From the NCBI GenBank assembly GCA_036258055.1, contig DATAEK010000013.1:1-41564 (forward strand): a stretch of DNA of 41,564 nt, in the 5' to 3' direction. This DNA comes from Vicinamibacterales bacterium (GTDB taxonomy: Bacteria > Acidobacteriota > Vicinamibacteria > Vicinamibacterales > 2-12-FULL-66-21). Below are positions 21,690-35,950 of the stretch, one piece after another. The first letter of the stretch is position 1, and each line of letters begins with the position of its first letter. The notes under the pieces are model-generated. The model worked only from the letters and a program-made list of their open reading frames with translations, searched no databases and was not told where the DNA came from. A program made the position numbers and the translations under genes.

Positions 21690-23168
21690 CTACTCCACCC
21701 GAATGGTGCGCCATTTACCCTGATGGAATCGCGCGGCGGACAGGACGCAGCGCGTGAGGTGGCCGAGCAGGATCGCTGTCCAGACCGTCTGCGGCTGAAG
21801 CCGTCCCATTGCTTGCATCGTGAACAGGATCCCGAGCGGCACGACAATCTGCGACGCGAGGGTGATGTAGAGCGGGCTTCGAGTGTCTCCGGTTCCCTGG
21901 AGCCCACCCGTGTAGGTCAGCGCGACGGTAATGAAGAGTCCTGACAGGCTGAGGAAACGAAGCAGCTGCGTGCCCAGTGCGACGACGGTGGGATCCTTCA
22001 GGCCGAAGATCGCGAGCAGATACTCAGGGACGATCAGGAACATCGCGCCGACAGTGGCCGCGACACAGAGACCGAACCGCGCGGCGATGTGCACGCCGCG
22101 CATGGCCCGCTCGGGTTTGCCCGCGCCGAGATTCTGGCCGGCGACGGCAGCCGCCGCACCCATGAGACCGACCGACGTCCAGGTGATCAGCGAGAAGAGC
22201 TCGGTGTAGCCCACCGCGTACGCGGCTTGCGCCTCCGCGCTGTGCTCGAGCGAACCGATGAACCGCAGGAGCAGCACGCCCGCGACGTTCATCGCCACAC
22301 CCTGAATCCCCGCAGGCAGGCCGAACCGGAACAGTGACCGGATGATCGTCCAGTCGGGCCGCCAGGCCATGCCCTTCGAGAAGTGCACGACGAGACGGCC
22401 GCGGAAGATCATCCACAGCGCGACCAAGGAGACGATGGTGCTCGCCGTAACCGTGCCGATTGCCGCACCGCGCGTGCCGAACCTCGGGATCGGTCCCCAA
22501 CCCGGAATGAGGATCACGTTGAAGCACATGTTGAGGATCGTCATCCAGATCCCGAGCCGCAGCGGCGTCCGCGCATCGCCGGCCGCACGCAGTGCGCCGC
22601 CGAGCATGAAGAAGAGCAGCATCCCGAGACTGAAGACGAACATCGTTCGCAGAAACGGGAGCGCTTCGGCACGGACGGCGGGTGTGGCGTGCACGAGCTC
22701 GAGCAGCCTCGGCGCCAGTACGTAACCAAGCGGTGCGAGGATGCCGACCGCAAGTACGACCGCCGTCAGGAACGCCTGATAGACCGTGCGGTTGACCTTC
22801 TCCGGCTGGTTGGCCCCCGCGAAACGCGCGACCAGGACACCCATTCCGGTGAAGAGCGAGCTGATGAAGACGATGACGACCAGAAAGATCTGCCAGCTCA
22901 CGCCGATGGCCGCATTGGCGGTGAAGCCGACGTAGTGGCCGACCATCGCGTGATCGATGATCCCCTGCAGTCCGCCAATGGCGTTCTGAAGGACCGTGGG
23001 CCACGCGATCTTCCAGACGGCGCGTGCGATCGGTCCCTCGACGATCGATCGATCCAGACGGCGGGCCGCGGCGCCGGACGCAGCCGCCGTCGCGGCAGGC
23101 GGAATGATCGTTCCCGCGGCTGGCGATGGATCCGCAGCGGGGGATATGGCTGCCGACGACTCGCTCAT
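21690..23168 (-). CDS. MATE-family efflux transporter
   Basis: About 492 aa from the ATG at 23168 (SD AAGGA). 12 predicted TM segments and a MATE-like N-terminus (IARAVWKIAWPTVLQNAIGGLQGIIDHAMVGH). The long 5' extension of the ORF to 23687 overlaps the VOC gene and is rejected. ATGA overlap with the VOC gene stop. Confidence 0.8.
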   Translation of the reverse strand: MSESSAAISPAADPSPAAGTIIPPAATAAASGAAARRLDRSIVEGPIARAVWKIAWPTVLQNAIGGLQGIIDHAMVGHYVGFTANAAIGVSWQIFLVVIVFISSLFTGMGVLVARFAGANQPEKVNRTVYQAFLTAVVLAVGILAPLGYVLAPRLLELVHATPAVRAEALPFLRTMFVFSLGMLLFFMLGGALRAAGDARTPLRLGIWMTILNMCFNVILIPGWGPIPRFGTRGAAIGTVTASTIVSLVALWMIFRGRLVVHFSKGMAWRPDWTIIRSLFRFGLPAGIQGVAMNVAGVLLLRFIGSLEHSAEAQAAYAVGYTELFSLITWTSVGLMGAAAAVAGQNLGAGKPERAMRGVHIAARFGLCVAATVGAMFLIVPEYLLAIFGLKDPTVVALGTQLLRFLSLSGLFITVALTYTGGLQGTGDTRSPLYITLASQIVVPLGILFTMQAMGRLQPQTVWTAILLGHLTRCVLSAARFHQGKWRTIRVE

Positions 23169-24091
23169 CGCAAATCCTTGAGGATGCGCCGCACGTCGGC
23201 ATGAGCGAGGACGACAGCTGGCTGGCGCTGCAGCGCTTCGAAGTAGCGGCGCGCGAACCCGTCGCCGGTCTCCGACGCGGTGAGGAGACGCTCGACCTGT
23301 TCCACGAGCGTTTGCGCATCGGCGGATGTGGCGGGTGCGTCCTGTTCGACGGCCTGATCGATCCGGACGATCAACTCCGAGAGCGCGTGCAGCCAGGCGA
23401 ACCAGGGATCGTTGATCACCAGCTGCAGCAGGCCCGCATTCGATCCGACGCGCCCTCGGTCCATCTCGTACGCCGCGCGCGCATCGTCGAGCAGCACCTT
23501 GTGCAGGTGGAGCAGCCGGCCCCTGAGCGCCCGCAGGCGCTCGCGCTCGGTCTCGGTCATCAGCGCGTAGGCTGGGACGGCCGTTGCAGAAGCTTCGGCC
23601 GGCACTGACGACGCTGCAGCACGGAGCGCATCCAGATCGAGCCGCACCGTCCCCATGTTGAGCGAACCATTCGCACTCCGCGGCCACTCGTCACGCGGAC
23701 GGTCGACGTACAGCTCGAGGCCGTTCTGGTCCGGATCGCGCAGATAGAGCGCTTCGCTGACGCCGTGATCGCTCGCTCCGTCGAGCTGGATCCCCGCGCT
23801 GTCCAATCGCAGCAACGCGTCAGCAAGGGCCGCGCGGTTCGGATAGCGGACTGCGAAGTGGTAGAGACCTGTCGTGCCCGGTGGCGGCGGCGACCCACCC
23901 TGGCTTTCCCAGGTGTTCAGTCCGATGTGATGGTGGTAGCCGCCGGCACTGAGAAAGGCCGCCGAGTTACCCATCCGCTGCATGACCTCGAAGCCCAGCA
24001 CGCCCGAGTAGAACGCGATCGCCCGGTCGAGGTCGGCGACCTTGAGATGCACGTGGCCGATATCCACGTGCGAATCGAGCGGCTTCTGCAT
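23165..24091 (-). CDS. VOC-family (glyoxalase/bleomycin-resistance/dioxygenase fold) protein fused to a C-terminal domain of unknown function
   Basis: The N-terminal ~135 aa carry VOC motifs (HVHLKVADLDRAIAFYSGVLGFEV, HHHIGL, LYLRDPDQNGLELY). The remaining ~170 aa have no recognisable domain. Confidence 0.6.
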   Translation of the reverse strand: MQKPLDSHVDIGHVHLKVADLDRAIAFYSGVLGFEVMQRMGNSAAFLSAGGYHHHIGLNTWESQGGSPPPPGTTGLYHFAVRYPNRAALADALLRLDSAGIQLDGASDHGVSEALYLRDPDQNGLELYVDRPRDEWPRSANGSLNMGTVRLDLDALRAAASSVPAEASATAVPAYALMTETERERLRALRGRLLHLHKVLLDDARAAYEMDRGRVGSNAGLLQLVINDPWFAWLHALSELIVRIDQAVEQDAPATSADAQTLVEQVERLLTASETGDGFARRYFEALQRQPAVVLAHADVRRILKDLR

Positions 24092-29717: not shown

Positions 29718-30620
29718 ATGCGCACGCGCACAATGCGGCGCATGACATTCCCGCTGCGCTCGCACGCCACGATCGCCATCGCCCTTCTGCTGACAGTGGG
29801 CGTCGTTCAGCCAGGCTCACGGATACGGGCGCAGACGTCCGAGAAGCCGCCGGTCTACGACGCGTTTGCCATCCGCTTCGGCATCCTGCCGGCGTTAGCG
29901 GTGTCCGGGCTGGTGGCCGGCACCGAGGCCGGACGCAGGCTCGACATCCCGGTCATGGTCTGGCTGCTCAAGGGTTCGAACGGGCGCAACGTGCTCGTGG
30001 ACTCCGGCTTCTACCGGCAGAAATTCGTCGAACGGTGGAAGGTCCGCGACTTCAGATCGCCTGCCGATGCGGTCGCCGCCGCGGGAGTACGGCCGGACGA
30101 GATTACCGACATCATCATCAGCCATGCGCACTGGGACCACGTCGACGGCGCGGATCTCTTCCCAAAGGCCACGATCTGGATCCAGCGCGACGAGTATCAG
30201 TACTACACCGGAGAAGCGTGGCATGCGCGCAACACGCACGGCGGGATCGACGACGAGGATATGGTGGCGCTGCTGAAGATCAACACGCAGGGGCGGCTGC
30301 GCTTCGTGAACGGCGACGATCAGGAACCGATTCCCGGCATCCGCTGCTACACGGGCGGCCGTCACACGTTTGCGTCGCAGTATGCGTCGGTGAAGCTGGC
30401 GGCGGGAACCGCGGTGTTCACGAGCGACAACGTCTACCTGTACGAGAACTTAGAGAAGCACGTGCCGATTGCCCAAACGTTCGACGCGGCGAGCAACCTG
30501 AAAGCCCAGGATCGGATCAGGTCGCTCGCCACGCAGCCCGCGCTCATCGTGCCCGGCCACGATCCAGCGGTGTTCGAACGGTTCACCAGGGTCGCGGACG
30601 GGATCGTGCACATCCCGTAG
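29718..30620 (+). CDS. Secreted MBL-fold metallo-hydrolase (N-acyl-homoserine-lactonase-like)
   Basis: Signal peptide. HAHWDH (HxHxDH) zinc motif plus downstream His/Asp (CYTGGRHTF, VPGHD). Size and motif spacing resemble AiiA/AidC-type lactonases. The exact start is uncertain (ATGs at 29718, 29733 and 29742). Confidence 0.7.
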   Translation: MRTRTMRRMTFPLRSHATIAIALLLTVGVVQPGSRIRAQTSEKPPVYDAFAIRFGILPALAVSGLVAGTEAGRRLDIPVMVWLLKGSNGRNVLVDSGFYRQKFVERWKVRDFRSPADAVAAAGVRPDEITDIIISHAHWDHVDGADLFPKATIWIQRDEYQYYTGEAWHARNTHGGIDDEDMVALLKINTQGRLRFVNGDDQEPIPGIRCYTGGRHTFASQYASVKLAAGTAVFTSDNVYLYENLEKHVPIAQTFDAASNLKAQDRIRSLATQPALIVPGHDPAVFERFTRVADGIVHIP

Positions 30621-30643
30621 AGTCTGCCGTCAGGCGGACCTAC

Positions 30644-30663
30644 GCGTCCGGCTAAATCCGGAC
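30644..30663. repeat. Hairpin GTCCGG-CTAAAT-CCGGAC between convergent genes (related to the 2729 and 29210 elements)
   Basis: Perfect 6-bp stem read from the sequence. It lies between the MBL gene stop (30620) and the flotillin stop (30678), and could act as a bidirectional terminator. Confidence 0.45.
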
Positions 30664-30677
30664 ACGACAACAGGGTG

Positions 30678-32492
30678 TTACGTCCGCGGTTCCGCATCCT
30701 TCTGCGGACCCGCCAGCATCTTCGCGATCATCGCGTTCACCAGCCCGCCACCGCCATCGCCGCTGACGGAGATCTCGGGCACGAGCTTCACGCGGTTCTC
30801 GCCCAGAATCGTCGCGAGCTGGATCGCGGTGTAGCCGGTACCACCCACAGCGTCGATACCGAGCTTGTAGGCCTCAGCCTTCGCCGCACCCACCGCACGA
30901 ACCGCGGCGGCTTCCGCCTCACCGTTCACGCGAACGGCCGCGGCCTGGCCCTCCGCCCTGAGCCGCAGCGCGTTGCCTTCACCGCGCGCCGATTCCGCCG
31001 TCGCCAGCGCGTTCTGCTGCGAAATCCGCACGGCCTGCTCGGACCGCACGACGTCGGCCTGCAGGTTGGCCACGGCCGTCTCACGCTCGAGCGCCTGACG
31101 CTTCACCTGCGCCTCACGCTGAACGTCGTAGGTGAGCTCGAGCTCCTGCGCGATCTTGCGGTCCGTCTGCGTCTTCATCAGCTCCGCCGGCGGCGCGATG
31201 TCGCCGATCAGCGTATCGATGCACTCGACGTCGTAAGACTCGATCGCCTTCTTGATGTTCTCGAATGCCTCTGTTTGCCGCTCCGACCGCGCGGTCAGGA
31301 ACTCCAACACCGTGACCTGCTGCGCCGAGTTGCGGAAGTAGTTGCCGACGGTCGGCTGCAGCACGTGATCGACGAGGTTCTGCATCGAGCCCACCCGCGA
31401 GATCACCCGCGGCGCGTTCTTCATACCGATGTGGATGATCTGCGACACGTCCATGCTGAACGAGAAGCCGTCCTTCGACCGCACGAGGATCGACGACAGC
31501 CGTTCATCGTAGTGATGCGCCTCGGTCCGCTGCGCCCAGTTCAGCACGATGTTGGTCGTCGGCACGAGCTCGACCTTCATGACGCGGGTGTTGACCGGAT
31601 GCTTACCGGGCAGGAGCGGCTCCACCCACACACCCTTGCGCCCGCGCTCCACGAGGTCACCATGCGTGAACGATTCGCCGGACACGTCGAGGTGCTCGCG
31701 TCCGACGTAGCTGACGACGACGCCTACGTAACCGATGGGGATCTCGGTCAGCGGCACCGGCTCGACTCGCACGAACCACGGGTTGAGGTTCCACGATCCC
31801 GACAACAAGACGTCCTCCTGCAGACCGCGGCAGCCCGAGGCCTCGATGAACGCCTGCCCGCGCTGGAAACTCTCGTGACCCTCGATGCTCGGGCCCGCGA
31901 GATCACCAGACGCGATCGGACGGCCGTCCAGCACCGTGACGATGCCGACGCGATCCGTGGGCATCTGATACACCTCCAGATCCTCTTCCGTCATGCCGTG
32001 CTCCTCGGCGGTTGCGGCCGTGACGATCTCGAAGAGCGACGGATTGATGCGGTAGGTACCCGCCGTCAGGAACGCGAGCTGTCGGCCCCGTTCCCCCCCG
32101 TCGCGCAGGAACGCCTCGGCATCCTGAAAGTTGTCGCACGCGACCTGACGTCCGAGCACACGCTCCGGCGGAATCGCCGCGCCGTCGGCGGCGACAACGA
32201 GCGCAATCTGCCCCGGCTCGACCACGACCACCGGTACCTTCACGATCCGATACCGCCCGCGCCAGTACCCGAAATGCCACCCGGGCGGCAGCATCCGCGC
32301 CTGGTAGCCCGCCTCTCCATTGACGGCGATGATCCGTCCCGACGCGAGCGGCGGACCGAACCGTTTCACGACCAGCCCCGATTGGTCCGCACGAATGATC
32401 CACATCCCCCACAGCGAAACGACCAGCGCGAGCGCCACGAGCGCGCCGATCGAGACCACGAGTAACCCACCCTCCAGGAGCGACATCGGCAT
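30678..32492 (-). CDS. Flotillin-family SPFH protein (long, YqiK/FloT-like)
   Basis: About 605 aa from the ATG at 32492 (MPMSLLEGG...). N-terminal TM helix, an SPFH core, and a very long Ala/Glu/Gln-rich coiled-coil C-terminal half (EA-repeat region) typical of flotillins. Confidence 0.8.
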   Translation of the reverse strand: MPMSLLEGGLLVVSIGALVALALVVSLWGMWIIRADQSGLVVKRFGPPLASGRIIAVNGEAGYQARMLPPGWHFGYWRGRYRIVKVPVVVVEPGQIALVVAADGAAIPPERVLGRQVACDNFQDAEAFLRDGGERGRQLAFLTAGTYRINPSLFEIVTAATAEEHGMTEEDLEVYQMPTDRVGIVTVLDGRPIASGDLAGPSIEGHESFQRGQAFIEASGCRGLQEDVLLSGSWNLNPWFVRVEPVPLTEIPIGYVGVVVSYVGREHLDVSGESFTHGDLVERGRKGVWVEPLLPGKHPVNTRVMKVELVPTTNIVLNWAQRTEAHHYDERLSSILVRSKDGFSFSMDVSQIIHIGMKNAPRVISRVGSMQNLVDHVLQPTVGNYFRNSAQQVTVLEFLTARSERQTEAFENIKKAIESYDVECIDTLIGDIAPPAELMKTQTDRKIAQELELTYDVQREAQVKRQALERETAVANLQADVVRSEQAVRISQQNALATAESARGEGNALRLRAEGQAAAVRVNGEAEAAAVRAVGAAKAEAYKLGIDAVGGTGYTAIQLATILGENRVKLVPEISVSGDGGGGLVNAMIAKMLAGPQKDAEPRT

Positions 32493-32660
32493 CTGCCTTT
32501 CTATGAAGGCCGCCCGGCTCTCGCACCGGCCTCCGGCGGCCGTTGGGGTGGTCGTGCATGGGCTGGACCAGCCAGATTGCTGAGAAAACGGCGCCATTTC
32601 GGCAACGACTGCGCTCTACCGTCATTTCATTCATGTTCGGGCGGTGATACATTCACGATC

Positions 32661-33998
32661 ATGGCAACGGTGGACTGGTCAGGCTTCCCGGCTCCGCCCC
32701 GGGTGAGATCGGGACTGCGCGAGCGTGGAATCGACATCGTCGTGCGTCGCGGGGTTTCAGACGGGCACGGGGCCATGGTGATCGGCTCGCGGGACGCGCG
32801 CCGGCCGCCGCGCGGACCGAGCGGCCGGCCGTGGATCTGGGCGTCGCTAGCCTCCATCCCGGATCGCCTCGCGACCGATGCGGTCATCCGCGGCGCGTAC
32901 GACGTCGTCTCTCTGAAAGGTGCGGAGGCGATTGGCACGCTCGCACAGCGAATCGGCGAGCTGCTGACGCAGGAACCGGATCCGCCGCACGCGAATACGC
33001 TGGTCACCGTCAGTGAGCGATCGCGCCGCATCATCGGCCAGGTCGCACGCGTGGCCGCCACGTCGATGCCAGTCCTGCTCACCGGGGAGACCGGCACGGG
33101 CAAGGAGGTCATGGCCCGGTTGATCCACACCTGGTCGTCGCGGCGAGACAAACGCTTCGTCCCGATCAACTGCGCGGCGATTCCGAACGAGCTCATGGAA
33201 GCGGAGCTCTTCGGCTACGCGCGCGGCGCCTTCTCTGGAGCCGTCCAGCGTTACGACGGCCAGCTGATGGCCGCCGAAGGCGGCACGGTCTTCCTCGACG
33301 AGATCGACGACACGCCGCTCGAGACGCAGATCAAACTGCTGCGGGTCCTCGAAGATCGCGTGGTCAGCAGACTGGGCGAGAACGTGTGGCACGAAGTGGA
33401 CTTCCGGATCCTCGCGGCGACCAATCGCGATCTGCGGCCGCTCGTCGACTCCGGCGCGTTCGGCATGGATCTCTACGAGCGACTGGCGATCGTCACCATC
33501 AGCCTGCCACCGCTGCGGGAGCGGATCGAGGATCTCGAACCGCTCTCGCGGTTCTTCATGGCGAGATTCGCACGTGAGCAGGGCCGCGCGCCGGTCGAAG
33601 CCATTCGCGCGGACGCCCTGCGGATGCTCAAGGCGTATTCATGGCCCGGCAACATCCGCGAGCTCCGAAACGTCATCTACGAGACGCTGGTCTACAAGCG
33701 GGCGGGGAACGAGATCATCCTGTCCGACCTGCCGCGTCGCGTGTTGCGTGCGGCAGCGAGCGCGCGGCTACGGGCGGTTGTGGACGCCGGACGCCTCGCC
33801 GAACGCATCGGCACCGGAGCGATGAACCTGCGCGACGAGGTCGCCGCGCTCGAGCGGGCCGCGCTGGAGGAAGCGCTGAAACGCACCGGAGGCAACGCCG
33901 CCCAGGCGGCGCGGCTTCTCGGAGCCGTCGGACGCGGTAGTTCGAAGGATCCCGGCGGGACAGTCCGCGCAATGATGCGCAGACTCGGACCGGCGTGA
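32661..33998 (+). CDS. Sigma-54-dependent transcriptional activator (bEBP, Fis-type HTH) with a degenerate N-terminal receiver-like domain
   Basis: AAA+ motifs are present: Walker A GETGTGKE, ESELFGY-like EAELFGYARGAFSGA (a GAFSGA variant of GAFTGA), Walker B TVFLDEID, and the arginine-finger region. A C-terminal Fis-type HTH (GNAAQAARLLG) follows. The N-terminal ~110 aa lack the receiver acidic pocket (IDIVVRRG). Confidence 0.85.
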   Translation: MATVDWSGFPAPPRVRSGLRERGIDIVVRRGVSDGHGAMVIGSRDARRPPRGPSGRPWIWASLASIPDRLATDAVIRGAYDVVSLKGAEAIGTLAQRIGELLTQEPDPPHANTLVTVSERSRRIIGQVARVAATSMPVLLTGETGTGKEVMARLIHTWSSRRDKRFVPINCAAIPNELMEAELFGYARGAFSGAVQRYDGQLMAAEGGTVFLDEIDDTPLETQIKLLRVLEDRVVSRLGENVWHEVDFRILAATNRDLRPLVDSGAFGMDLYERLAIVTISLPPLRERIEDLEPLSRFFMARFAREQGRAPVEAIRADALRMLKAYSWPGNIRELRNVIYETLVYKRAGNEIILSDLPRRVLRAAASARLRAVVDAGRLAERIGTGAMNLRDEVAALERAALEEALKRTGGNAAQAARLLGAVGRGSSKDPGGTVRAMMRRLGPA

Positions 33999-34054
33999 CG
34001 AACGCGGGGACGAGTGGCATCGGCCAGCTGGGCAGGCCGTGAGACACTACCTAG

Positions 34055-35950
34055 ATGACCCATTCGATCTCCGTCGGCATATTCAGCGTGGCCGCCGCGT
34101 GCGCATTCGCGGTGGTGCTGTCGGCAACGATCCAGCAGGAGCGCGATCGGGCCAAGATCCCGGACAAGTACAAATGGGATCTCACCAAGATCTATCCGAC
34201 GGACGACGCGTGGCGGCAGGCGAAGGAGAAGATCAAGACCGAGATTCCGAAGGTGCGCGAGTTCAAGGGCACGCTTGGCACCTCGGCGGCGCGTCTGGCC
34301 GACGCCCTCGACCTCGGCAACGAGCTGTCGAAAGAGCTCTCGCGGGCTTACGTCTACGCGAGCATGACGTCCGATCAGGACACGCGCGTCAGCACGTATC
34401 GGGGCATGCAGCAGGAGATGATCCAGATTGCCGCCTCACTCGGGGCCGAGACGGCGTTCCTCGAGCCTGAAGTCCTGAAAATCGAACCGGCGGTCATCGA
34501 CCGATTCATCGCGCAGGAGCCGCGCCTCAAGGTTTACACGGTCTACCTCAAGGACATCCAGCGCCGGCGTCCGCACACCCTCAGCGACGCAGAAGAGAAG
34601 CTGCTGGCGAGTTCTGCGGTGATGGCGAGCGGCCCGTCGAACATCTACGGCATCTTCTCCGACGCCGATTTTCCGTATCCGTCCGTGACGCTCAGCGACG
34701 GCAAGACGGCGAAACTCGACAGCGCGGCATTCAGCGTTCTTCGCGGCGTCCCGAATCGTGACGATCGTCAGAAGGTGATGTCGACGTTCTTCAACACGCT
34801 CGGCGCGTACGCGGGGACATTCGGCGCCACGATGAACGCGCAGGTGCAGTCCGACGTGTTCTACGCCCACGCGCGCAAGTACGGCAGCGCGCTCGAGTCT
34901 TCACTCGACGGCGCCAACATCCCGACCACCGTCTACATGCACCTCATCGACGGCGTGAACCGGAATCTGCCGGCGTTCCATCGGTATCTGAAGCTGCGGC
35001 AGTCGATGATGAAACTGCCGGAGCTGCACTACTACGATCTCTATGCGCCGCTCGTGAGCTCGGTGAACCTGGCGTATTCCGCTGAGGACGCCGAGAAACA
35101 CGTCATGACGGCACTGGCGCCGCTCGGTCCCGACTACGCGGCCGCAGCCAAGCGCGCCTTCTCGGAGCGCTGGATCGATTTCTACCCGAACGACGGCAAG
35201 CGCTCCGGCGCCTACTCGAATGGCGGCGCCTACGACGTCCATCCGTTCATGCTGCTGAACTACAACGGCAAGTACACTGACGTCAGCACCGTGGCGCACG
35301 AGCTCGGCCACACGATGCACAGCTACTACTCGAACAAGACGCAGCCGTACGCGACCGCGAACTACCCGATCTTCGTGGCCGAAGTGGCGTCGACCTTCAA
35401 CGAGGCGCTGCTCATCGATTACATGCTGAAGACGATTACCGACCCGGAAACCAAGCTGTCGCTCCTCGGCGACTACCTCGAAAGCATCAAGGGAACGGTG
35501 TTCCGCCAGACGCAGTTCGCGGAGTTCGAGCTGCGGGTTCACGAGATGGCGGAAAAGGGAGAGCCCATCACGGGCGAGACGCTCGACAAGCTGTACGCGG
35601 AGATCACCAGGAAGTACTACGGCCACGACAAGGGTGTCTGCACGGTCGACGACTACGTCGCGCACGAGTGGGCCTTCATCCCGCACTTCTACCGTAATTT
35701 CTACGTCTTCCAGTACGCGACCTCCTTCACCGCCTCGTCGGCGCTCTCCGAAAAGGTCAAGGCCGGCGATCCCGCGGCGACGAAGCGGTATCTGACATTT
35801 CTGTCATCCGGCGGCTCCAAGTACCCCATCGACCTCCTCAAGGACGCCGGCGTGGACATGACCACCGACGAGCCGCTTGAACTGACGGTCAAGAAGATGA
35901 ACCGCGTCATGGACGAAATGGAGAAGCTGATCGCGACACGAAAGAATTGA
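34055..35950 (+). CDS. pepF: Oligoendopeptidase F (M3B family), secreted
   Basis: 631 aa with a signal peptide and a HELGHTMH zinc-binding motif. Length and conserved blocks (YxxMQQE, FRQTQFAEFE) fit the M3B/PepF family. Confidence 0.85.
   Translation: MTHSISVGIFSVAAACAFAVVLSATIQQERDRAKIPDKYKWDLTKIYPTDDAWRQAKEKIKTEIPKVREFKGTLGTSAARLADALDLGNELSKELSRAYVYASMTSDQDTRVSTYRGMQQEMIQIAASLGAETAFLEPEVLKIEPAVIDRFIAQEPRLKVYTVYLKDIQRRRPHTLSDAEEKLLASSAVMASGPSNIYGIFSDADFPYPSVTLSDGKTAKLDSAAFSVLRGVPNRDDRQKVMSTFFNTLGAYAGTFGATMNAQVQSDVFYAHARKYGSALESSLDGANIPTTVYMHLIDGVNRNLPAFHRYLKLRQSMMKLPELHYYDLYAPLVSSVNLAYSAEDAEKHVMTALAPLGPDYAAAAKRAFSERWIDFYPNDGKRSGAYSNGGAYDVHPFMLLNYNGKYTDVSTVAHELGHTMHSYYSNKTQPYATANYPIFVAEVASTFNEALLIDYMLKTITDPETKLSLLGDYLESIKGTVFRQTQFAEFELRVHEMAEKGEPITGETLDKLYAEITRKYYGHDKGVCTVDDYVAHEWAFIPHFYRNFYVFQYATSFTASSALSEKVKAGDPAATKRYLTFLSSGGSKYPIDLLKDAGVDMTTDEPLELTVKKMNRVMDEMEKLIATRKN

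Follow-up and report, generated by a model that had tools for sequence, protein, structure and literature searches.

A divergent gene pair linking a flotillin-like SPFH protein to a predicted sigma-54 activator with an aspartate-less, receiver-like domain

A 41,564-nucleotide stretch of DNA from a Vicinamibacterales bacterium (Acidobacteriota), hereafter the window, carries two genes that point away from one another. One encodes a flotillin-like SPFH (Band_7) membrane protein and the other a bacterial enhancer-binding protein (bEBP), an activator of the sigma-54 holoenzyme. The window is the entire 41.5-kb contig of a metagenome-assembled genome. Our analysis makes it very probable that the pair is a self-contained, two-gene sigma-54 module, in which the bEBP would switch on the SPFH gene from sites in the shared spacer; the wiring of this module is well supported in silico by the recurrence of the gene pair, of a -24/-12 promoter and of a binding-site motif at related loci. 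The pair and the promoter-like element had been picked out in an initial annotation made from the letters of the DNA, and that observation is confirmed here.

Conservation of the gene pair

The two genes flank a divergent spacer of 168 bp (32493-32660), as first described. The bEBP open reading frame (ORF) begins at a conserved ATG at 32661 on the plus strand and ends at 33998, encoding 445 amino acids. On the minus strand, the SPFH ORF spans 30678-32597 and has two plausible starts, in-frame ATGs lying 6 nt apart (32484-32492), at 32492 (604 amino acids) and 32486 (602 amino acids). The second is kept in close relatives, one of which (L083) has GAC in place of the first, and its distance from the Shine-Dalgarno sequence is also more favourable; a length of 602 residues is therefore more likely than one of 604. 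The gene downstream of the SPFH gene in the window is convergent with it.

To place the pair in context, we collected 80 loci (L001-L080) with relatives of the SPFH protein from species-representative genomes, covering Vicinamibacterales, many Myxococcota including cultured strains, Methylomirabilota/Rokubacteria and Thermoanaerobaculia. By tblastn, a bEBP ortholog lies divergently upstream of the SPFH gene in 67 of the 80, in at least four phylum-level groups, with 50-73% identity and alignments that often begin at residue 1. The two genes are separated by 300 nt or less in 51 of these 67 loci. Two further loci, both from Polyangia, have the ortholog downstream of the SPFH gene, and those remaining without a divergent bEBP are mostly truncated contigs. 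The reciprocal look-up from the bEBP side returned a divergent SPFH gene in three of three contigs, one of them labelled Gemmatimonadales, where gene calling had fragmented the SPFH gene. The co-localisation of the two genes in relatives, on which the initial annotation had made its proposal depend, is thus seen from both sides.

Nothing else travels with the pair. The neighbours in the window (penicillin amidase, DUF6496, MBL hydrolase, PepF and beta-lactamase) had no tblastn match in L001-L080, and clustering of ORFs from the loci gave no third shared gene; the close relative L083 keeps Peptidase_M3 and penicillin amidase genes beside the pair. The same clustering produced an apparent bEBP cluster of 78 loci, which was inflated by antisense shadow ORFs and was set aside for the tblastn counts. 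Because the pairing recurs and no third gene is shared across loci, the conserved unit is, by this comparison, exactly two genes and their spacer.

The SPFH proteins share about 80% identity across Vicinamibacterales and 66-74% between Acidobacteriota and Myxococcota, the range for the subfamily in the two phyla being 66-83%; for the bEBP, identity between these two phyla is 49-63%. The identity of the pair is unusually high for such distant phyla, which suggests that the two genes, their promoter and their binding sites have spread horizontally as one module. A Vicinamibacterales-type pair of 75-77% identity is also present on a 296-kb contig titled 'uncultured Bifidobacterium sp.' (L010, CAZOAZ010000001.1), whose bin label is probably wrong. 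Cultured carriers of the module include Myxococcus eversor, M. dinghuensis, Corallococcus exercitus, Hyalangium versicolor, Vitiosangium and Citreicoccus.

A predicted sigma-54 promoter upstream of the SPFH gene

The promoter-like element, TGGTCCAGCCCATGCA (TGGTCC-N5-ATGCA), has GG at 32569-32568 and GC at 32557-32556, giving the GG-N10-GC spacing of a sigma-54 promoter. It lies about 64 nt from the first SPFH ATG; the transcription start is predicted near 32545. It was described from the outset as weak, and by itself it is: scored with a position weight matrix (PWM) for sigma-54 promoters it reaches 9.0 bits, and 14 sites of at least 9 bits occur in the 83 kb of both strands of the window, so a match would fall within 168 nt by chance in about 3% of cases. 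Standing barely above chance on its own, the element becomes convincing only through its conservation at orthologous loci. When the 120 nt 5′ of the SPFH start are scanned, the top PWM site reaches 9 bits or more in 66% of loci; the opposite strand of these regions gives 1%, and random windows give 2.6%. The pattern GG[CT]N8TGC[AT], which uses no weights, is found at the same position on the gene strand in 67 of the 80 loci and on the other strand in six. When the window is aligned with three closer relatives, at 86-90% protein identity, the GG and TGCA are invariant amid diverged DNA. Promoters of the Myxococcota loci typically read TGGCAG-N5-ATGCA, while several Archangium-like loci have TGGTCC-N5-GTGCA, like the window.

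We considered whether the -24/-12 match could have arisen by chance, with the bEBP regulating other genes and the SPFH gene being read from an ordinary promoter. The modest score, the number of comparable or better sites in the window and an rpoN gene that is only presumed in the source genome would all fit such a coincidence. Against it stand the retention of position and core at orthologous loci, the co-conservation of a candidate activator-binding motif with the promoter (see below) and the pairing seen from both gene sides. We regard this explanation as highly improbable, and chance co-occurrence as essentially excluded.

The strongest sigma-54 match in the window, TGGGACGGCCGTTGCA (15.9 bits; 23573-23588, plus strand), lies in antisense orientation within a minus-strand ORF (23165-24091). 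No gene follows closely on the plus strand, and the site is probably fortuitous or intragenic.

Candidate activator-binding sites in the spacer

The stretch that separates the bEBP start from the promoter is rich in AT, with 55% GC as opposed to 69% across the loci as a whole. An unbiased count of hexamers found GATTCA/TGAATC, AATCAC and ATTCAA in 31-44% of upstream regions compared with 2-3% of background windows, the first of them reaching 44% against 3%. Iterative refinement yielded an 11-mer, C(G/A)TGA(T/A)T(C/T)AAA. At least one site of at least 10 bits was present in 62 of 71 loci and in 32 of 2025 background windows; two or more were present in 36 of the 71 loci and in four background windows. 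Preferred spacings are 22 bp for direct and 26-27 bp for inverted pairs, and individual sites are often partial palindromes, such as GTGATTTAATCAC in L013. The window has a pair 22 bp apart, 55-90 nt upstream, the distal site ending 3 nt from the bEBP ATG. No more than five sites in the 41.5 kb score 12 bits or higher, and these are two of them.

The position of the motif in rearranged loci bears on what it is. It is kept at the SPFH promoter where the bEBP gene lies 1.6-4.6 kb away (L027, L037, L038, L045, L046 and L060), where the bEBP gene is downstream of the SPFH gene (L062 and L069) and where no bEBP is found in the locus (L024, L055 and L071). That the element follows the SPFH promoter and not the bEBP gene argues that it is an upstream activating sequence (UAS) and more than the bEBP gene's own promoter.

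A terminator-like hairpin followed by a T-run (32604 to 32592, minus strand) lies between these sites and the sigma-54 promoter. Shuffled sequences are expected to hold a mean of 1.2 such hits, and this one is within that expectation.

The bEBP core and DNA-binding domain

The central and C-terminal parts of the protein have the features of a bEBP. Pfam assigns Sigma54_activat (PF00158, residues 115-280, E = 2.4e-60), AAA_lid_14 and HTH_8 (residues 395-421), and the Walker A and Walker B motifs, the sigma-54 contact loop and the Fis-type helix-turn-helix (HTH) are all conserved in orthologs; a -24/-12 promoter and upstream sites are predicted in silico at the target gene. The contact loop reads GAFSGA instead of GAFTGA, as the initial annotation had pointed out, and it is invariant in 35 orthologs. 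It is no notable feature, because GAFSGA has been documented as a functional T-to-S variant in two regulon studies (PMC4641369, PMC6615313).

The HTH_8 match (PF02954; 26.6 bits against a cut-off of 22) spans profile positions 3-29 of 42 and ends before the expected recognition helix. It is followed by an invariant stretch, GRG-x3-DPGGT-x-RAM-x-RRL (33930-33986, plus strand), and the arrangement suggests that this Fis-type HTH contains an inserted turn of unusual length.

The protein had been called PspF-like. Its divergent layout agrees with that label; its scores do not, since it falls short of both PspF equivalogs (TIGR02974, 248.4 bits against a cut-off of 443.55; NF008622, 213.6 bits against 529), and it has an N-terminal domain. 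None of the NCBIfam equivalogs reaches its cut-off for this protein. Judged by these profiles and by its orthologs, it is a distinct bEBP subfamily and not PspF.

A probable aspartate-less receiver at the bEBP N-terminus

Residues 1-114 matched no Pfam or NCBIfam hidden Markov model (HMM), Response_reg included, at E values up to 10 and 1, respectively. The secondary structure elements of the N-terminal domain nonetheless follow the order β1-α1-β2-β3-β4-α4-β5-α5, consistent with a receiver that has lost α2 and α3. We mapped the catalytic positions via secondary structure and not by residue-level superposition. The end of β1, where a receiver has its acidic pair, carries W6-x-G8; the end of β3, the place of the phospho-acceptor aspartate, carries T/S43; and no conserved lysine follows β5. 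All five conserved receiver residues are absent, and orthologs do not retain the D45 and K86 that the window protein has. With the catalytic positions replaced in this way, the domain is in all likelihood an aspartate-less receiver that is not phosphorylatable. The initial annotation had proposed a receiver without its acidic pocket that is probably not controlled by phosphorylation, and both points hold; the VVRRG on which it relied (residues 27-31) ends β2 and not β1. No cognate histidine kinase is conserved in the neighbourhood, although an orphan kinase elsewhere in the genome is possible.

Eleven N-terminal residues are invariant in the bEBP family (W6, G8, P50, W58, W60, A74, G78, A79, Y80, R97 and E100), so the domain is under selection. 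It is probably an interaction surface.

An alternative is that the bEBP is a constitutive activator, its pseudo-receiver being a structural or oligomerisation module and its output being set by bEBP abundance and sigma-54 availability. The absence of all phospho-acceptor residues would suit such a protein, as would the linker, which is proline-rich (PEPxPP) and not the helical coiled coil that NtrC1 and DctD use for repression. Control through abundance would also be in keeping with the distal UAS lying so close to the bEBP start codon, and with a scan for sigma-70 consensus promoters (30500-34200) that found no site, so that the bEBP gene's own promoter must overlap the UAS region. Set against this, 11 residues held invariant across phyla, including the surface-type R97, E100 and P50, exceed what a passive spacer needs. 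We consider a constitutive activator unlikely, though a serious contender.

The SPFH protein is a distinct flotillin-like subfamily

The SPFH protein has a single Pfam domain, Band_7 (PF01145, residues 251-462, E = 1.6e-21, 77.6 bits). An N-terminal hydrophobic helix is the predicted membrane anchor, and positive charges after it suggest that the bulk of the protein is cytoplasmic. About 220 residues separate this anchor from the SPFH domain. They form a beta-rich module (residues 30-250), for which a phmmer search against 1.84 billion representatives gave 1345 matches at E ≤ 1e-3. The copy number of the module varies in relatives, which are up to 1802 residues long with up to 12 matched stretches; Band_7 comes after the module in six of seven relatives scanned, and some relatives end in a VWA domain or a zinc ribbon. 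The window protein has four copies of a 28-residue motif, G.rG....L.pG...iNP....v..vP, of which the last coincides with the start of the Pfam Band_7 match. We looked for an internal duplication between residues 30-248 and Band_7, which was not demonstrated (hhalign probability below 2%); only the short motif recurs.

An AlphaFold model from an alignment of 17 sequences of roughly 80% identity had a mean predicted local distance difference test (pLDDT) score of 45 and was unusable as a whole; at this low confidence it places helices at residues 2-29 and, in the tail, at residues 443-548. A single-sequence search of the PDB gave only a spurious TPR match, and the family profile had a sole match, flotillin-2 residues 235-361, at a marginal E value of 0.004. 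A PADLOC scan for defence systems gave nothing for the SPFH protein and matched only the generic AAA+/HTH part of RtcR-like models in the bEBP, and membership of a defence system was rejected on this basis.

Database labels for the family are 'YqiK' (JGI) and, for some Myxococcus orthologs, 'flotillin family protein' (NCBI); the 90% cluster of the M. eversor protein, in which an M. xanthus ortholog was sought, contains other Myxococcus species only. The name flotillin, used in the initial annotation, is loose: Band_7 and an A/E/R-rich, predicted helical tail are present, but Pfam Flot does not match the protein and an extra repeat module precedes the SPFH domain. On its sequence features, the protein is best described as flotillin-like, belonging to an SPFH subfamily distinct from the canonical flotillins.

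The SPFH leader

A stem-loop is predicted in the 5′ leader of the SPFH gene, immediately before the Shine-Dalgarno sequence. The folding z-score of the leader averaged -2.1 over 17 Vicinamibacterales loci, against +0.13 for coding controls (p about 5e-6). The stem-loop is also present in L006, L008, L009, L010, L011, L014, L016, L052, L057, L081 and L084-L086, and the stem sequences differ between Vicinamibacterales loci. A universal leader structure was rejected: 62 pooled loci, Myxococcota included, had a mean z-score of -0.39, and the signal is confined to Vicinamibacterales. The features of the locus are collected in Table 1.

Table 1 Predicted features of the SPFH-bEBP locus in the window
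Feature	Position	Strand	Basis
SPFH (Band_7) membrane protein gene, flotillin-like	30678..32492	-	ORF, Pfam, relatives
Long helical region rich in A/E/R/Q (residues ~443-565), flotillin-like tail	30798..31166	-	Composition, profile match
SPFH / Band_7 domain (residues 251-462)	31107..31742	-	Pfam PF01145
Beta-rich module without Pfam match (residues 30-250), between anchor and SPFH domain	31743..32405	-	Pfam, phmmer
N-terminal hydrophobic helix (residues 5-29), predicted membrane anchor	32406..32480	-	Read from sequence
Shine-Dalgarno sequence AAAGG of SPFH gene	32496..32500	-	GAAAGG(C/A) kept just 5′ of the start codon in relatives
Stem-loop in predicted 5′ leader, GGCCGCC...GGCGGCC	32508..32541	-	Folding z-scores; just 5′ of Shine-Dalgarno sequence
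Predicted sigma-54 type -24/-12 promoter, TGGTCCAGCCCATGCA	32555..32570	-	PWM, regular expression, alignment
Promoter-proximal candidate UAS, CATGAATGAAA	32625..32635	-	16.1 bits; kept in close-relative alignment and across loci
Promoter-distal candidate UAS, CGTGAATGTAT	32647..32657	-	12.3 bits; CGT(G/C)AAT(G/C)TATCAC in L081-L083
Sigma-54 enhancer-binding protein (bEBP) gene, 445 residues	32661..33998	+	ORF, Pfam, orthologs
Aspartate-less (pseudo-)receiver domain (residues 1-104)	32661..32972	+	Secondary structure, orthologs
AAA+ sigma-54 interaction domain	33003..33500	+	PF00158
Walker A, GETGTGKE (residues 142-149)	33084-33107	+	Sequence motif
GAFSGA sigma-54 contact loop (residues 189-194)	33225..33242	+	Invariant in 35 orthologs
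Walker B, FLDEIDD (residues 211-217)	33291-33311	+	Sequence motif
Fis-type HTH (HTH_8, residues 395-421), then GRG-x3-DPGGT-x-RAM-x-RRL (residues 424-442)	33843..33986	+	PF02954, orthologs

Discussion

Taken together, the gene pair, its promoter, the linked motif and the domains of the bEBP suggest how the module would work. The bEBP would bind the two 11-bp sites through its C-terminal HTH, the 22 bp between them corresponding to two helical turns and their centres lying some 100-125 bp before the predicted transcription start. There it would assemble into an AAA+ ring whose GAFSGA loop contacts sigma-54 holoenzyme parked on the -24/-12 promoter, and it would spend ATP on opening this divergent promoter, so that a monocistronic SPFH mRNA with a leader of about 55 nt is made. 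As the distal site abuts the bEBP start codon, its occupancy probably also limits transcription of the bEBP gene, by analogy with PspF and NtrC. The input would not come through a histidine kinase, because the stripped receiver cannot be phosphorylated; a protein partner or ligand acting on the N-terminal domain, or control of bEBP abundance, is more likely.

Several points weigh against this model. The promoter match in the window is weak at 9.0 bits, its fourth position being T for C and its GC being preceded by AT in place of TT; the weights of the sigma-54 PWM were approximate literature values. The regions scored with the UAS PWM were also its training set, which leaves the k-mer enrichment as the independent evidence for the motif, and the AT-rich element could in part be the bEBP gene's own promoter. 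Neither rpoN nor Sigma54 domains were found in the 41.5-kb window, and the 1.0 Mb of collected loci likewise gave no rpoN and no RpoN-box. Two Myxococcales loci with 6 kb of sequence upstream of the SPFH gene, L063 and L076, have no bEBP nearby and no recognisable -24/-12 element (best sigma-54 scores 1.9 and 4.8 bits), and regulation may be rewired there. The literature searched contained no published experimental data on any member of the module.

Acidobacteriota and Myxococcota encode sigma-54, and we assume rpoN in the source genome from the intact sigma-54 machinery and promoter. Deletion of sigma-54 is reported to be lethal in M. xanthus (PMC12316311).

A close architectural parallel is PspF-PspA, the phage-shock system of E. 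coli. In both systems an activator is divergent from a single membrane-associated target, the shared spacer contains the activator-binding sites, which overlap signals for expression of the activator itself (a prediction in the present case), and there is no histidine kinase input. The two differ in that PspF has no N-terminal domain, whereas the bEBP here has a folded one of about 104 residues, the aspartate-less receiver. The target is an SPFH (Band_7) protein instead of PspA/IM30, which is ESCRT-III-like, and feedback from target to activator is hypothetical here.

This parallel raises the possibility of a Psp-like feedback, in which the membrane-anchored SPFH protein, or the state of its assembly, would directly keep the bEBP inactive until the membrane is perturbed, the receiver serving as the docking surface. 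Such an arrangement would resemble the action of PspA on PspF and would refine the two-gene model by naming its signal. The divergent layout with one dedicated target, as in pspF-pspA, is in line with it, as is the lack of a kinase or other sensor conserved nearby. The receiver without α2 and α3, with its invariant W6, W58 and W60, might form a docking patch; W58 and W60, at i and i+2 on β4, should share one face of the sheet, and the charges after the anchor suggest that the SPFH bulk faces the cytoplasm. On the other side, contact between the SPFH protein and the bEBP is hypothetical, the SPFH monomer model (pLDDT 45) was unusable, and PspA acts on the AAA+ domain of a PspF without N-terminal domain, which makes the analogy architectural only. 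We judge this feedback to be improbable. Broader still, and slightly more doubtful in our estimation, is the idea of a previously unrecognised, cross-phylum, Psp-like envelope-stress response built from different parts, in which the SPFH scaffold would be both sensor and output and would signal the state of the membrane to its own activator via the W6/W58/W60 patch exposed by the loss of α2 and α3. Among inputs to the two-gene module, we would rank a ligand or partner acting on the stub receiver first, a constitutive bEBP set by its abundance second and Psp-like feedback from the SPFH protein third.

FleQ-type bEBPs have a non-phosphorylatable, receiver-like N-terminal domain. The protein described here shares with them, and with other aspartate-less receivers, the order of REC-like, AAA+ and HTH domains; as the phospho-acceptor is missing, FleQ-like control by partners or ligands and not by a kinase would be expected. 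In contrast to FleQ, it has no detectable N-terminal sequence similarity (no HMM match) and α2 and α3 are deleted, its predicted target is a single adjacent gene and not a flagellar or exopolysaccharide regulon, and no FleN-like partner is conserved nearby. With NtrC, NtrC1 and DctD it has in common the three-domain order and paired UAS sites about 100 bp upstream of a -24/-12 promoter; it departs from them in the absence of the five receiver residues and of a cognate kinase nearby, and in its proline-rich linker.

The target, for its part, resembles the flotillins FloT/YqiK and flotillin-1/2 in its N-terminal anchor, SPFH domain and long A/E-rich C-terminal region, predicted to be helical. 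It differs from these proteins in that the SPFH domain does not directly follow the anchor, the 220-residue beta-rich repeat module being inserted between them, in the lack of a Pfam Flot match and in having flotillin-2 as its one, marginal sequence link to the PDB. Regulation would differ too: B. subtilis floT is controlled by the extracytoplasmic function (ECF) sigma factor SigW, whereas a sigma-54 promoter is predicted here. The literature searched contained no paper connecting sigma-54/RpoN or a bEBP with a gene for an SPFH, flotillin or band-7 protein, which does not by itself prove novelty.

As a circuit the module follows standard logic, being a widely distributed new instance of enhancer-dependent control. 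It adds a sigma-54 activator whose receiver is stripped to a non-phosphorylatable stub, and it gives an envelope-related predicted sigma-54 target in the phylum Acidobacteriota, where hardly any regulation has been characterised. The roles of bacterial SPFH/flotillin-like proteins are poorly defined and their inducers little known; for one large, strongly conserved SPFH subfamily, the module offers a dedicated activator together with a predicted promoter and binding sites, and its cultured carriers make the inducing signal of a flotillin-like gene experimentally accessible.

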